Sequence record: NZ_CP086424.1
From: a plasmid
Reading direction: 5' to 3' (one strand)
DNA length: 64,000 nt
This document shows, one piece after another, positions 1 through 12,000 of the stretch (its first letter is position 1; each line of letters opens with the position of its first letter). The position numbers are program-made.

Positions 1-3000
1 GGCAATCGGTAGTCTTTCCCGCGTTCGAGGCTTTAGCCCTCGCATTAGGGAACAGCCTGTGGAGCTGGGTTGGAATGATGCCAATCATGGTCGAAGTCGT
101 GGATGAATCACAGCCGGTGATCGGTGGTGAAGACTTCCATTGGGCAACGGCATTGGTTGACGCAAAGGGCACTCTCAAGCTGTCACCGGCAGCGAAAAAA
201 CAGGGGATGCCCTTCAACATTATGGATGGTCAATTGGCTGTCTATTCACCTAACGGAACTAAAAAGAGCTGCGGCCATGAGCCTTGCGAATATCTCCCGG
301 TAATGATGTCCGGAGACGCAATCATGGTCACTTCATCTTTGGTTCATTAGTAACTCACCGGGGCAATGCCGAAAGGCCTTTGCTCCGGCCTATCCGAAAG
401 GAGAGTAATCATGAAAATCGAAACTGTTGTGCCTTTACCTCCCGAGGATTCAGGCCTTCAACACTGCATTGCCAGGTTCCATAACCGCAACATGGATTCC
501 AAGCGAAAAGACAAGACCCGTTTTTTCAGGAGGGAGCCGGTTATGATCGTAAACCCAGAGACCAAAGCAAAGGTTCTCCGGTATGCGATGGGCAACCCTG
601 GGAATTTATCCATCACAAAGCTGGCGGTCGCGCTGGATTACGATGCGGTAGATGCTCTGGGTGTTCGTTTTAAAGACACTGTAAATCTTGAGGTTCGCAG
701 AGCCAGGCGCTGGGAAGTCTGGCAGTGGTTCTGGAACCATCCGGATCAAAGTGTCCAACTGTCAATCAAATTGGGCGTGGTTGGCGCTGTGTTGGGAGTC
801 ATGGGCTTCCTGACTGGCGTAGCTCCGTACCTCTTGGGATAAACCAATAAAGCCGTTAACGGGCAATGTAAGTCCGGAGACGGCTTGCATTGCTCTCTCG
901 AAAGTGGAGAGTCAAATGAACACATTAGAACAACTTGTAAATCAGAGAGTGCTTGAGGAAGGTCTGAAAAAGGCGAAGCCATTGGCCGCGCAAATGGGGC
1001 TTGAATCTGTACCTGATGAGATGCTTGAAATGATCTGCCCAAACTTGAACTACTCTGGGCAGTTTACGCCAGCTCTGTACGCGAGATTTCAAAGCGTAAA
1101 GCGATTACTGAAAGAGTTGTCGGAACAAACCTCACCTAAGCACGGGCATATTGTGAAGTTTACCAACCAATATGGGAGCTACGATGAGTCAGCTTTGCTG
1201 TTCAAAGAAGGCGACGTCAGAAACCAGAACTTGGTTGCTTGTGTGGGCGGGAAGACGATAAATCTCGGAGAGCTAGAGCTTCGAGATTATGGGCTCAATA
1301 TGCACATCGGTTGCGGTGGACCATTTGAGCCGATCTCAGAAGCGCAGATTCAGTCCTTGTCTGAGTTTGACTTCTATGAGACGACCTACAGATTCTGGGG
1401 CCAGAATCCATGTGGAAACGGGATGATAGACATCACCGTCCCTATGAAACGTTGGTTCTTGACTGTGTAGCTTCAACCTGAGTGCGCCGAGAAATCGGCG
1501 TACCGGCCCCTTAAAAAGGGTAATCAGCGCAGGGGGAAACCCCGCGCTTTCCCAAGCATCTCGGTTTCCCAGGGTGCTTCGGAAAGTGCCTTAGGCGCTC
1601 AAGTGCGGTAGCTGGCTGCCAAAAACAAACAGCAAATTATCAACCCTGACGGGAGCACCTCCTGTTAGGGGGGCTCCGTCATAAACTGAACGGAGATATA
1701 GCATGTCTAAAAACGTCAACGATGTTTTTTCAAACCGAACTTCTTTGGAATGTACTGTGAATGCAGCGCTGGATCGTCGTATCGGTCTGCGTGTCGGGTT
1801 CCCTCATTACAGAGAAGGAGCAAACGGTGTGGTTTGTGAGATCGAAGCAGAGTACCCATTGCTCAACACTCATTCGAGTGTTGCATGGCCCCTGCTCGAT
1901 GAACTCAACAGTTACACCATCCAAAAAAACCAATCGCTCATTGATCACATTGATAATGCGGTCGCTGAACTGTTGAAACACAAGGCTCGTCTACAGCTTG
2001 ATATTCAAAAGCTGCAAGACGGTGACATTGATCTGGTGAAACAGGCCAAGCAGCAATACGAAGACAACCAGATGTCGAGTAGCAGCTAGTTCAGGTCTGA
2101 TAGCCAGGATTCAATTTTAACCCTACCGGGGTGCTTTCCCGGAAGGGATGGGCACCCTGCTAATCCAGGAGGCCCTATGCAACAAACATTAAACTTTGAT
2201 CTATCAGAACAACCCATCCCAGTGCTTTTGCGTGGGGATAAGTGGGATTCTGTTTGGTCAGAACTGACTGATAACGAGGATTTGAACTTCGTTGATGCCA
2301 GTAGAGGAACCAGTCTGTCATCGTTGATCACGTCATCGGTTGAGTCCATTCACACGGCCTTAATTGATGGGTGGACCATGATGATCGGCTATTCCAGTGG
2401 TAAAGATTCTGAAACGGTCTTGCACCTGTTCCTGATGGCCCTGATCCGGGCTGTAAGGAGTGGGGCGACCATCAGCCAGCACCACTTCATCTTGCACACT
2501 GACACACTGATCGAAAGCCCAGAGGTAAGGTGGCTGGCGGATCAGAAACTGGCCGAGCTGGAGCGTTTCATTGCGAAGGAAAACCTTCCTCTGACCATCG
2601 TTCTAGCAAAGCCTGGGATCTCGCAGAGTTGGACGGGCCGAATCCTTACTGGGAGGGGGTTGCCTACGTTTTCCAACTCCACGGCCCGCCAGTGTAGCCA
2701 GGATTTAAAAATCACCTCTGCCAAAAGAGCGAAGGCAGCTTATATGCGAGAGCTTCCCAAAGAGGTTCGACAGAAAGTCTGCCTTTTGCTGGGCAGTCGT
2801 GATGCTGAAAGCACTATTCGTGCGGCCAACATTGCAAAACAGCGAGGAAGCTCAGATCGCGTCATTAAGACGAAAGATGGGGGTGAGCTGTATGTGGTGA
2901 AAAACTGGTTGGCGAGTGATGTCTGGGAGTTCTTACTATCCGCTGGCATGGGCTCAGCATATCCTCTGCCAAGTTACTTGGAGAGCAATGTCACTACGGC

Positions 3001-9000: not shown

Positions 9001-12000
9001 TGGTTTTGAGCTGCTGATGTGGCTCAATAACTGGGACTTTAAACAGTGCCTGAGCGAGGTTGGTGATTATCTGGGCGTTGAGAAAGAGCAACCCCAGTAT
9101 CAACAAGCCGCTGCACCGACACGAGCTCCTGTCCAGGCCAAAGCGCCTGTTCAGCAAGAGCCTATGAAGGTGAATAACAAGGTTCTCGATTCCAAGAATC
9201 GTAAAAAATCCATTGCCGGTACTCTGATTGCCCACGGTAAAGCTCCTTATGAGCATAACGAAGACAACGAGCTCAGCTACTTTGCCTTCATCCGTGACAA
9301 GAGCGGTTTGGAACGCACCATCTGGGGCGTGGATCTTGAAAGAGCCATTGGTGAAAGTGAAGCCAAGTATGGGGATGAGATCGTCATGACAAACCTCGGG
9401 CGCGAGCCTGTAACTGTCGTCGTTGAAGTTAAGGACGAGCAGGGGAATGTTGTGAGAGAACAACCTATGCAAACGCATCGCAACACCTGGCTGGTGGAAC
9501 GTCGCGGCGCTACGGTAACGCAGTTCCGCGCTCGCTCGAACGGTGGTGTTGAGCCGGTGAGTCACCATGTTGAGTCGGCCCCTGTGGTCAACCGCAAGGT
9601 AGAAACTCCGGCACCGCAAGTACAACCTGCGGCCACACAACCGGAAGAGCAAAGCAGCGAAAATAAGCCGAAAGTTGTTCCGATGTTTCGTGAACAACCT
9701 AAGCCTTGGTTGCTTGAGCTCCAAGAAGAAATGGAGAAGAGAATGGAGCGCGAACGCGCTTACAGTGCTCGTCTCCGTGAGAAAATCGAGAAGGTATGGA
9801 ACGAGTGTTTGCCGTTCTCCAGTCATGTGACTGAGCCAATGCGTCTGTACTTCAAAAACCGCGAGCTGCTGTTCAAAGTTGATGAAGTAGAAAAAACAGA
9901 CTGTCTGCGGTTCAATCCGGCTATGGCCTACTACGACGAAGATGGCAATGAAGTTGGGAAATTCCCGGCTATCGTCTGCGCTATCCGAGATGTGGAAGGC
10001 AACCTGGTAACGCTCCACCGCACCTATCTCACCCAAAACGGTAAAAAAGCCAAGGTCGGCAACGCCAAAAAGATGATGCCCATTCCTGACGGTTTGGATG
10101 TCAATGGCGCGGCCATCCGCCTCGGTGAACCGACTGAGGGTATCCTGGGTGTTGCAGAAGGGCTGGAAACAGCTCTGTCAGCTTATCGAGTCACTCAAAT
10201 CCCGGTTTGGTCAACGGTCAATGCCACCCTAATGGAGTCCTTCGAGGTTCCAGAAGGTGTTCACACCGTACTGATCTGGGCTGACAAAGATAAGTCTGTG
10301 ACTGGGGAGAAGTCAGCGAACGTGCTGAAAGCCAAGCTGGAGAAGCGCGGCATTCGTGTGTACGTCCTGCTGCCTAAGCTCCCGATCCCGCCCAGAGCGA
10401 AAGGGATTGACTGGAACGATGTCCTGATGAGTCAGGGAAGCCTCGGTTTCCCGAATGCTCGCTACCTGCGCGATTTCATTGCGAGAAGGAGAGCTGAGTA
10501 TGGCCGTCATTGATGTCTCGAAGGTTGATACAACGCCTGGTAACGACGCGGTGTGCCCCTTCTCTCCCCCTGAGGGGTGGGAGGGGGACTCTGCGGCCTA
10601 CGTTGAGCTTATGCGGTCTCGGTATCGTCATCTGATGCACGGCCAGAGAATGATGGTGACAGCCTCCTTCGCAAGAAGGGAGCCTATCCAAGTTACTGGC
10701 CCGTTTGCTGATGAAGCGACGAAGATCATTAACTCAATGAAGATGAACAAGGCGAAGCCAACAGCTTTGTCTGCCTAAAACTTTAACCCTGAGGGGGTGT
10801 TCATGCCCTCTCAGGCATGATTCGCCTCCTCTTCAACTATGGAGGTAATCATGAAAAAGTTTTTGCGTATTAAGACGTGGTTTGTGCGTCTTTTCTCTCC
10901 TGACAAGAAGACTCTGGGAGCTATCGGTGAAGACCTGCGTAAGGTCGCCGTAACAGCCATCGGTGTCGGTATTGTAGGGGTCGTCTCAGAAAACGGAATC
11001 TATGGTCACTCCCGTTTTTGCAACACCGATTTTGACGACAAGTTGGCTTGCTTGAATCTATCCGGCGTCTGAATGGGATTTTATTCCCGCGCCTTGATGA
11101 GTTCCGCGCCTGATGAACCTCCAGAAAATATACGGCTTCAATGAGCCTTTCCGTTTTACAGGTTCCTCAACAGGCCGGTGGGCCGTTAGTATCATCAATA
11201 TCAGTATTCGCAAAACCAGATCAGTAATTCTTTAAACCGGTGTATTTCTGCCGTTATGCTACATAAGTTTGCTGTCGTGCCGTTAGGGCCCAGGCTATTC
11301 TGGCCAGCTTGTTTTCCAGAGCACAAGTGACGACAAAGTTGCTTTTCCGGCACAGTAAATCCCTGACCCAATCGGCCAATTTGCCAGACTGGTGTTCCAG
11401 TTTTTGTATGAATACCCTGGCACATTGAACCAACAAAGTTCGGATCTTTTTATTACCTCGCTTACTAATTCCCAGCAATGTCGTCCTACCTCCCGTGCTG
11501 TACTGCCGAGGTACAAGCCCTGTTGCCGCCGCAAAGTCACGGCTGCTGGCGTACTGCTTCCCGTCGCCAATCTCAGTTGAAATAGTACTCGCTGTCAGTG
11601 TTCCGACGCAGGGAATGCTCAGCAAGCGCTGTCCAACCTCATCTTCGTCCAACTTTCGTTTCAACTGGGATTCCAAATCTTTAATCTGCTCAACAAGATA
11701 GTGATAATGCTGTTGTAATTTCAGCAATAACTGGCTGAGGTAAAGAGGCAAACTATTATCCTCAAGAATGGTACTCAGTCGGCTAATAACGGCAGCTCCT
11801 CGGGGAACGCTAATGCCAAATTCCAGCAGAAAAGCATGCATTTGATTGGTTGTTTTTACCTTATCCTGAACCAGGGATTCACGGACACGATGCAGAGCCC
11901 GCATTGCCTGCTGAGATTCCGTTCTGGGCTGCACAAAACGCATAGACGGACGCGATGCAGCTTCACAAATAGCTTCGGCGTCGACAAAGTCGTTTTTATT

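Follow-up and report, generated by a model that had tools for sequence, protein, structure and literature searches.

The locus and its gene array

The DNA considered here, referred to throughout as the window, is a stretch of 64,000 nucleotides from plasmid sequence record NZ_CP086424.1, and our subject is a structured two-hairpin module that recurs between the genes of its plasmid backbone. Positions 1-11100 of the window are IncC (IncA/C2) backbone, found with at least 99% identity in 748 plasmid records, and the ARI-A resistance island (IS4321/mer) begins where this backbone ends. In the reference plasmid NZ_CP041083.1 the corresponding locus is L001, with window coordinate = L001 coordinate - 33965, and the window backbone makes up the distal third of an array of same-strand genes, 27 kb long, that runs from the acaB-vcrx087 region to a toprim/primase gene. 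The array encodes an AAA ATPase and its partner (vcrx089-090), ssb, bet, exo, DUF3150 and VWA (CobT-like) proteins, yfaE, DNA methylases, a PAPS-reductase-like protein, yfbR and the toprim/primase, together with many small open reading frames (ORFs) without assigned function.

An earlier note on this DNA had taken these genes for an establishment or anti-defence array, an assignment borne out by the literature: vcrx089-093 constitute an operon for host-defence evasion, hde (Roy et al. 2020, PMC7498323), the hde genes are polycistronic and co-transcribed with their neighbours as judged by reverse transcription PCR (RT-PCR), and the recipient needs the hde proteins to be made de novo (PMC7498323). 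According to the same paper, a structure sequestering the ribosome-binding site (RBS) of vcrx089 was predicted there as a single case, in a supplementary figure. We find that this structure is one module of the array (L001 18753-18818).

A two-hairpin module upstream of array genes

The module consists of two hairpins, HP1 and then HP2, upstream of a gene start and separated by 0-3 nt. HP1 is a hairpin of 26-32 nt anchored on (U)UAACCC, with the form CCC-N4-GGG-loop-CCC-N4-GGG, and its apical region is here called X. HP2 pairs the Shine-Dalgarno (SD) sequence, and often the AUG too, with an upstream anti-SD strand (X'); its apical loop is rich in A and U (75% A+U, versus 46% over the whole module). 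Modules lie upstream of about 28 of the 31 genes of L001 that have an intergenic spacer, and the remaining junctions of that locus are overlaps or very short gaps. Twelve intergenic regions are structured in the window, ten of them as canonical units and two (before genes 411 and 917) as non-canonical ones.

The earlier note had described SD-pairing hairpins upstream of nine genes, those starting at 1703, 2177, 4832, 5107, 6912, 7969, 8222, 8786 and 10851, and RNAfold predicts one for each of them; the five stems that it quoted also lie where it had placed them (1674-1695, 4804-4829, 5083-5102, 7940-7967 and 10823-10845). Its list overlooked three units, namely the canonical one of gene 6280 and the non-canonical ones of genes 411 and 917. 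The distance of 10-20 nt that it gave between anti-SD and SD fails for gene 8786, where the anti-SD (8686-8694) lies about 75 nt from the SD within a 93-nt hairpin. Its "AACCC(N)GGGG small stems" are present as sequence, but they are really the 5' foot of the longer HP1: covariation supports a pairing of the CCC of HP1 with the distal GGG, and the small stem may form as an alternative. The pattern AACCCN{2,6}GGG matches the window 14 times, with 10 of these matches falling on the + strand at 1642-10797, and TTAA is the commonest prefix of the foot. That the stems directly follow stop codons is true of about one third of modules, the upstream stop lying 0-2 nt from the CCC of HP1 in 50 of 160 (31%; 46 UAA, 4 UAG and no UGA). 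It lies within 10 nt in 70 of the 160 and more than 10 nt away in 56%, and complete modules also occur in 5' untranslated regions (5'UTRs) after promoters or leaders, without an upstream ORF.

The energetic evidence sets these units apart from shuffled controls, as the earlier note had expected of structures not due to chance. Relative to dinucleotide shuffles, the minimum free energy (MFE) of the whole unit has z between -2.95 and -8.74, with a mean of -4.8. Opening the translation initiation region (TIR), from SD to AUG, costs on average 8.5 kcal/mol, compared with 5.6 kcal/mol in control constructs whose upstream part was shuffled; the 30 array genes that have a spacer reach a Stouffer Z of 8.07 on this measure, the nine genes named at the outset 3.93 and tra genes 1.2. 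At least four of six SD positions are paired in 89% of 163 distinct modules drawn from related elements, against 50% of 333 control gene starts, which form a crude control set; gene starts in distant loci were likewise set by a crude rule combining SD and ORF.

A covariance model (CM) of HP1 was built from a gapless seed of 14 sequences, all from outside the window. An alignment of paralogous HP1s by MAFFT was dropped because its 3' arms were out of register, and the HP1 finder was length-constrained, with two units set by hand, since an unconstrained version chose hairpins between X and X'. The model finds eight HP1s in the window, all on the + strand within 1640-10818; the sole other match is weak and on the minus strand at 3510 (E 0.86), and no HP1 is found in the remaining 53 kb. 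Over the whole reference plasmid, with the window scan covering the gap between L001 and L086, every match falls within the array. Two other same-strand arrays of small IncC genes (L085 3938-17756 and 35553-41449), whose genes tightly abut or overlap, gave no HP1 match, and the module is therefore specific to one array rather than a general habit of the plasmid.

Covariation supports the HP1 stem. Across 129 distinct HP1s, aligned by fitting to the model, pairing holds in 89% of cells compared with 76% in column shuffles, and double-change cells number 236 against 91 expected, a value reached in none of 500 shuffles; the covariation score is 0.349, and controls with a slid register reach at most 0.068. 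The C/G triplets are invariant at both levels and the four pairs between them covary, with G-U frequent. HP1 is thus constant in sequence as well as in pairing, with CCC/GGG at both levels and A at positions -1 and -2. A search of Rfam 15, by gathering threshold and by E-value, returned nothing relevant in window 1-11200, L001, L003 and L004, sub-threshold matches falling only on a terminator at 4631-4655. The module is a new RNA motif family, absent from Rfam.

The HP1 loop resembles the start site of its own gene

Unit by unit, X is complementary to X', the anti-SD/anti-AUG strand that forms the 5' side of HP2, and for this reason X resembles the gene's own SD-AUG region (X''). Partner swaps in ten elements show that both X:X' and X':X'' are cognate-specific. 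The permutation p is at most 5e-4 in IncC, pHX3, pVPS62, the Shewanella and Edwardsiella elements and both Marinobacter elements, 0.0015 in the Methylobacter element L017, and at most 0.026 in L006 and L023, which have only five modules each; the same-sense control, apex against TIR (X:X''), is null (p = 0.36-0.47). Duplexes restricted to the loop plus or minus 1 nt average -5.0 kcal/mol for cognate pairs versus -2.7 kcal/mol for the others (Mann-Whitney p = 4e-13), and the TIR costs 8.4 kcal/mol to open with its cognate HP1 versus 10.8 kcal/mol in chimeras. The complementarity is kept as sequences change. For instance, in the bet unit the loop ACAYCAU/GCACC stands opposite the X' sequence AUGGUGU from IncC to Methylobacter, with HP1 stem sequences that differ, and in unit 10851 UCAUG:CAUGA of IncC corresponds to GGCGC:GCGCC of pHX3, both partners having changed. 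A nested X:X' hairpin is itself the MFE structure in units 5107 and L001 32690.

As a separate observation, the 5' arm and loop of some HP1s hold a decoy-like ribosome site, with a run of G, a gap of 4-6 nt and an AUG, as in GAGGGGGUGUUCAUG (window 10791-10805) and GGGGGCACUCAUG (bet unit, L001 21324-21342). Such sites are consistent with a loop that mimics the true start region.

Units in the window

All units of the window lie on the + strand. The first two are the non-canonical ones, both without an AACCC foot: before gene 411 the SD is paired within 353-406 (z = -3.7), and before gene 917 a two-hairpin unit at 851-918 pairs CUCUC with GAGAG of the SD (z = -4.5). In the latter, an upstream GCCGU could pair with ACGGC in the loop of the next hairpin.

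In unit 1703, HP1 is folded by RNAfold at 1644-1670 (CM match 1640-1673, 21.8 bits; foot AACCC at 1642), and HP2 at 1674-1695 pairs CTCCGT with ACGGAG, the SD (z = -4.3). HP1 of unit 2177 occupies 2121-2147 (CM match 2117-2150, 29.7 bits). Its HP2, at 2150-2175, is built of GGGC/GCCC and CCUG/CAGG (z = -2.95); it pairs the SD only in part, with an opening energy that 45 of 100 shuffles also attain. Unit 4832 has an HP1 of the form AACCC...GGGTT at 4776-4805 (MFE core 4781-4803), without a CM match at E<=1, followed by an HP2 at 4804-4829 that pairs TTCTCTCC with GGAGAGAA (z = -3.6).

Units 5107, 6280 and 8222 are examples of strong pairing between loop and X' in the window. Ahead of gene 5107, HP1 lies at 5044-5072 and its loop X (5054-5063) can alternatively pair with X' (5073-5082) over 10 bp at -12.7 kcal/mol; HP2 at 5083-5102 pairs CCTCCAA with TTGGAGG (z = -4.4). 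The HP1 of unit 6280 (6221-6248; CM match 6217-6251) has a loop, CGCAUCAU, complementary to GUGGUGCG at 6250-6258 (-12.3 kcal/mol), and HP2 at 6250-6281 spans SD and AUG (z = -4.7). In unit 8222, HP1 (8161-8188; CM match 8157-8191) has the loop GUACAC, which complements GUGUAC in the 5' arm of HP2 (-9.4 kcal/mol); this HP2, at 8191-8220 (z = -5.0), is kept in L002 and L003.

The top CM match of the window (6846-6881, 31.1 bits, E 4.6e-5) belongs to unit 6912, with HP1 at 6850-6878 and, at 6880-6911, an HP2 that pairs GGUGUCUCC with GGAGAUACC (z = -3.6) and is kept in L002, L003 and L004. Unit 7969 begins with an AATCCC variant of HP1 at 7912-7939 (CM match 7908-7942), and its HP2 at 7940-7967 pairs GGAGATACCTCC with GGAGGTATCC (z = -5.3). 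HP1 of unit 10851 lies at 10787-10815 (CM match 10783-10818), next to an HP2 at 10816-10853 that spans SD and AUG (z = -6.6).

Unit 8786, ahead of the toprim/primase gene, has its HP1 at 8652-8682 (CM match 8648-8684) and a long HP2 at 8686-8778 in which CCUCCUUGG and CUAAGGAGG enclose a 65-nt inner hairpin (z = -8.7). Before HP1 stands a terminator-like hairpin with a T-run at 8621-8641, and after HP1 comes the near-perfect 65-nt hairpin, whose apex is AAACCC-N7-GGGGGUUU and which the anti-SD:SD stem encloses. The same architecture is found in pVPS62, where the long hairpin is kept with compensatory changes, and this hairpin may be a distinct regulatory or priming element.

The foot motif is occasionally duplicated in tandem, as in TAACCCaaacatTAACCCC (window 6835-6852) and in ATTAACCCTAATTAACCCTA at L001 28028-28047, which IncC has in this form and pRA1 as a single copy. 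These duplications could be scars of slippage or recombination at TTAACCC.

Distribution among related elements

A descriptor combining structure and ORF was scanned over IncA pRA1, Aeromonas pHX3, Vibrio pVPS62 and 24 loci anchored on bet, and it recovered 195 modules on the gene strand versus 2 on the opposite one. Modules recur in IncA plasmids, in pAQU-like elements and in chromosomal elements resembling integrative and conjugative elements (ICE-like) of Vibrio, Shewanella, Marinobacter, Methylobacter and Edwardsiella; the bet-anchored loci that carry them include chromosomal ICE-like contexts in Marinobacterium, Cardiobacteriaceae and Methylobacter. In about 50 prophage-type bet loci the descriptor counts are roughly at background, and a CM scan of the related elements agrees with this distribution. 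Conservation of the pairing in homologues, which the earlier note had put forward as a check, is thus found in IncA, Aeromonas, Vibrio and distant ICE-like elements, with covariation.

A proposed cis-acting switch and its alternatives

We tentatively favour the interpretation that the module is a cis-acting translational attenuator or switch, which would set the amount, and probably the timing, of translation of the downstream cistron. The closed form with HP1 and HP2 would be the stable default with low translation, and the pairing of X with X' would be a competing open form that frees the TIR. This open form could arise first during 5'-to-3' synthesis, ahead of the SD/AUG strand, or once the lower stem of HP1 opens, for example under a ribosome terminating at an abutting UAA. 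Newly made transcripts would thus be the main source of translation of each cistron, or translation would keep pace with that of the gene upstream, with silencing later on. Such timing would be fitting for proteins that have to be made de novo just after the plasmid enters a new host and that are costly thereafter. It is the order of synthesis, HP1 before X' before SD/AUG, that favours a transient open state on nascent RNA and hence a cis-acting attenuator or timer. The earlier note had proposed a dedicated translational-control architecture; anatomy, conservation and the folding of the sense-strand RNA fit it, all evidence on structure being computational and the function inferred. The module probably throttles or times the production of host-defence-evasion proteins.

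Several results weigh against this interpretation. In nested thermodynamic models the closed state dominates, HP2 having a mean stability of about -12.4 kcal/mol versus about -5 kcal/mol for the duplex of loop and X', and the loop duplex is weaker than -6 kcal/mol in 60% of units. When 12 nt of the HP1 5' arm are masked, to imitate a ribosome that terminates there, the TIR does not on average become more open, its mean opening energy going from 8.4 to 9.0 kcal/mol. Since X' starts 0-3 nt after an HP1 of 10-11 bp, a classical H-type pseudoknot on an intact HP1 appears sterically implausible, and so either the lower CCC:GGG stem must open or a nested X:X' hairpin must replace HP1. Genes 2177, 7969 and 8786 are individually not above shuffles for SD opening, and the claim of sequestration therefore holds for the gene set and not for each gene. 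When the IncC pairs are projected onto orthologues the outcome is mixed, with kept and broken pairs numbering 39 and 53 for HP1, 47 and 59 for HP2 and 25 and 19 for X:X', because structures re-form in shifted registers; each orthologue re-forms the two-hairpin fold despite its broken projected pairs. Finally, a cis-acting device leaves the conservation of UUAACCC and of the G/C triplets unexplained.

This last point keeps alive an unlikely alternative, in which one RNA-binding protein of plasmid or host binds the invariant part of HP1 and gates X:X' in about 30 cistrons together. By stabilising or opening HP1, such a factor would decide whether X' is captured, for instance to shut off expression after establishment. 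The sequence of HP1, and not just its pairing, is invariant, it is conserved from plasmids of Enterobacteriaceae to the Marinobacter and Methylobacter elements, and modules are complete at 5'UTRs that lack an upstream ORF, all of which a trans-acting factor would accommodate; yet a Pfam scan of 20 array proteins returned no RNA-binding domain, and the G/C triplets might persist merely as helix clamps. If this doubtful reading were right, each element would hold about 30 fusions between a conserved hairpin that a protein recognises (UUAACCC-CCC/GGG) and loops that mimic the start sites of individual genes, and these would constitute a post-transcriptional regulon. It is conceivable, at the same low probability, that one factor, or conjugative entry itself, would then gate the whole evasion and establishment set of IncC, IncA, pAQU and ICE-like elements, and such a regulon would, with no greater assurance, be of a kind not described for mobile elements.

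Less likely still is translation coupled to termination, in the manner of the 1:2, 2:3 and 3:4 pairings of ermC and trp, whereby a ribosome at the UAA melts the 5' arm of HP1, the loop and 3' arm thus released capture X' and SD/AUG is freed, so that a cistron is translated only if the preceding one is. The proximity of stop codons to the CCC in the minority of modules counted above fits such a scheme, as do the strand order 1-2-3-4, which matches attenuators, and the nested X:X' minima of units such as 5107 and L001 32690. UAA followed by C is also said, after work by Poole and colleagues in 1995, to be a weak termination context, which would lengthen the pause. However, the real stop is more than 10 nt upstream in 56% of modules and masking HP1 leaves the mean opening energy no lower. 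The completeness of modules at 5'UTRs, after promoters and leaders, together with only 31% of abutting stops, means that pure termination coupling cannot be the general mechanism.

An improbable further explanation concerns the processing or stability of the messenger. The A/U-rich single strand ahead of HP1 (UUUAA|CCC) would be cut by an endonuclease such as RNase E, HP1 and HP2 would serve as protective hairpins, 5' or 3', that set segmental half-lives along a very long polycistronic RNA, and SD pairing would be secondary. Intercistronic hairpins have precedents in T7 and in puf/pap-type systems, and here every intergenic region has stable GC hairpins flanked by U/A-rich single strands, in an operon that is long and co-transcribed by RT-PCR (PMC7498323). 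Such processing would leave unexplained both the exact tracking of SD and AUG by HP2 and the unit-specific complementarity between HP1 loop and anti-SD, and an HP1 of about 11 bp is too short for RNase III.

Very improbable is a role at the DNA level, in which the hairpins would act in single-stranded (ss) transferred DNA as Frpo-like promoters, as ssi priming sites used by the plasmid primase or as recombination sites between gene cassettes. Among the array proteins are indeed Ssb, Bet/Exo and a Zn-ribbon/Toprim primase, TTAACCC is duplicated in tandem at some junctions, and "ACCC" resembles a T7-type primer sequence. Against it, RNA of the + strand folds 2.4-3.0 kcal/mol better than its complement (p = 0.01 and 4e-4), the common G-U pairs would turn into C-A mismatches in the opposite strand, the positions of HP2 and X'' match those of SD and AUG, and pairs of sigma-70-like hexamers are depleted in window 1-11200 (1 versus 7.9 +/- 2.5 in shuffles), with none in the modules. 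On the 179-kb plasmid the origin of transfer, oriT, which adjoins mobI (PMC5587640), is located at about 178.3 kb, with 71-81 kb between it and the array whichever way round the plasmid is measured. Taken together, these results do not support the ssDNA promoter-like elements that the earlier note had offered as its second possibility, and a leading-region promoter of the Frpo type is rejected on the position of oriT and the promoter depletion. Integron attC sites are rejected as well: the modules have no RYYYAAC...GTTRRRY, HP1 reading AACCC...GGG, with GGGTT only in unit 4832.

Accidental folding of GC-rich spacers beside purine-rich SDs deserves virtually no credence: shuffled upstream sequences do pair the SD fairly often, half of the control starts are mostly paired in the MFE structure and several genes taken singly are not significant, but the z-scores, the covariation, the cognate and strand specificity, the confinement to one array and the conservation across distant taxa refute it.

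Relation to known systems and significance

The closest mechanistic relative of the module is the pseudoknot activator of repZ (repA) in IncI-alpha, IncB and IncL/M plasmids, where the loop of stem-loop I pairs with the 5' side of stem-loop III; the topology of the module matches, with a loop whose pairing would compete with RBS sequestration. The pairing that characterises the IncI/IncB system, between an upstream hairpin loop and the 5' strand of an RBS-sequestering hairpin, is present here and cognate-specific. The two also differ. The repZ device is single-copy at a replication gene, whereas the module occurs in about 30 copies in one operon array, with a conserved UUAACCC foot and with X' only 0-3 nt after HP1. 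In repZ alone a leader ORF, repY, is translated through the sequestering hairpin; at the array junctions examined no leader ORF crosses HP2, and upstream ORFs end before HP1. An antisense RNA inhibits repZ; none is known for the array, and because the array loops differ between units, one antisense RNA could not target all of them.

Attenuation of ermC and cat shares with the module four successive strands, of which 3:4 hides SD and AUG and strand 2 complements strand 3, an arrangement that we find here. The module differs in having neither a short leader peptide nor drug-dependent stalling; its "leader" would be a whole gene ending at UAA, in about one third of units, and masking strand 1 fails to release the SD in the nested thermodynamic model. 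RNA thermometers (ROSE, fourU) likewise pair the SD in a hairpin just upstream of the start codon, but HP2 is far more stable (about -12 kcal/mol), its anti-SD is CUCC/CCUCC and not UUUU or the U(U/C)GCU of ROSE, HP1 and the loop mimic come with it, and the whole is repeated at every intergenic region. Translational coupling in MS2 coat-replicase and rpl operons also relies on mRNA structure that closes a downstream TIR and that upstream translation may open; there the closing strand lies inside the upstream coding region, whereas the array device is wholly intergenic, modular and also present at 5'UTRs. Repeated stable hairpins between the cistrons of long transcripts are known from T7 RNase III sites and REP/BIME elements. 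The module differs from these in its HP1 of about 11 bp, in the lack of a REP-like sequence family and in a pairing that involves SD/AUG and is unit-specific.

What is known already, then, is the general kind of cis-acting mRNA structure that sequesters a TIR, plus the vcrx089 case; what is new is the array-wide module. This module, its HP1, the loop mimic and their breadth are undescribed in the literature searched, which includes the main text of PMC7498323.

IncC and IncA plasmids, with their relatives, rank among the major carriers of multidrug resistance, and the array that bears the modules holds the genes by which the plasmid withstands restriction and CRISPR as it enters a host (hde, ssb/bet/exo), besides encoding methylases and a primase. 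If true, an array-wide translational layer would explain how some 40 accessory genes can be cheap yet rapidly available, and would supplement the AcaCD/AcaB circuit with control at the post-transcriptional level. The study of RNA switching would, in addition, gain about 200 naturally diversified parts, each an "RBS lock plus built-in decoy".

Leader repeats, promoters and further observations

The first module of each sub-operon is preceded by a leader repeat of about 100-150 nt, which is the rptI of PMC7498323. Copies lie on the + strand of the window ahead of unit 1703 (1504-1640, with hairpin C at 1605-1619) and unit 7969 (7743-7900, hairpin C at 7862-7876), and L001 has copies at 17668, 18712, 23547, 27379, 31793, 35575 and 41832. 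The repeat comprises a GC hairpin with CUUUCC...GGAAAG, a covarying hairpin B and hairpin C, and ends in CAAAAACAAACAGCA; hairpin C has the form G[C/A]G[A/G]U-AGCUG-G[U/C]C[G/U]C, with two pairs that covary (10/10 and 12/8). We counted 48 distinct copies, all on the + strand, in IncC, IncA, pHX3, pVPS62 and the Alcanivorax, Marinobacterium, Edwardsiella and Azomonas loci, and the repeat has no match in Rfam. It is transcribed within the polycistronic RNA according to RT-PCR, and the same study treats rptI repeats as recombination substrates of Bet/Exo (PMC7498323). A likeness of the leader box to the ops element of RfaH is weak (GCGGTAGC in one copy), the position matching G5 of ops varies, and we rejected this candidate; no NusG-like Pfam domain was found in the array proteins scanned.

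Ahead of unit 4832, on the + strand, stand a canonical intrinsic terminator, AAAGCCCTCCTTCGGGAGGGCTTTTTCTTTT, at 4631-4655, an AcaCD-box-like sequence, ACCCCAAAAGGGC, at 4664-4676 and a weak leader box at 4745-4772. The AcaCD box is GCCCNDWWWGGGC, from which ACCCCAAAAGGGC differs by one mismatch, and it ends about 47 bp upstream of the point where transcription starts (PMC8373056). By this rule transcription would start near 4722, and gene 4832 would have a 5'UTR of about 110 nt that holds both its leader box and its module. The ACCCCAAAAGGGC site is probably the published vcrx114 promoter. Neither the CCC-N4-GGG of HP1, whose spacing is wrong, nor the leader box, which is not the AcaCD motif GCCCNDWWWGGGC, qualifies as an AcaCD site. 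The modules were also considered as intrinsic terminators and rejected, HP1 and HP2 not being followed by T-runs; a terminator scan gave 15 hits versus 11.9 expected and did not pick the modules.

Two minor observations concern annotation. Window 7969-8115 (L001 41934-42080) is a 48-codon ORF with a full HP1/HP2 module and no RefSeq coding sequence; tblastn matches it in pVPS62 (62% identity, E 2e-17), and it is probably a real small gene overlooked by annotation. Inside ARI-A, Rfam matches fall on the minus strand at 25779-25848, to RNA-OUT of IS10, and at 37291-37363, to the AAC_AAD_leader/attI of a class 1 integron.

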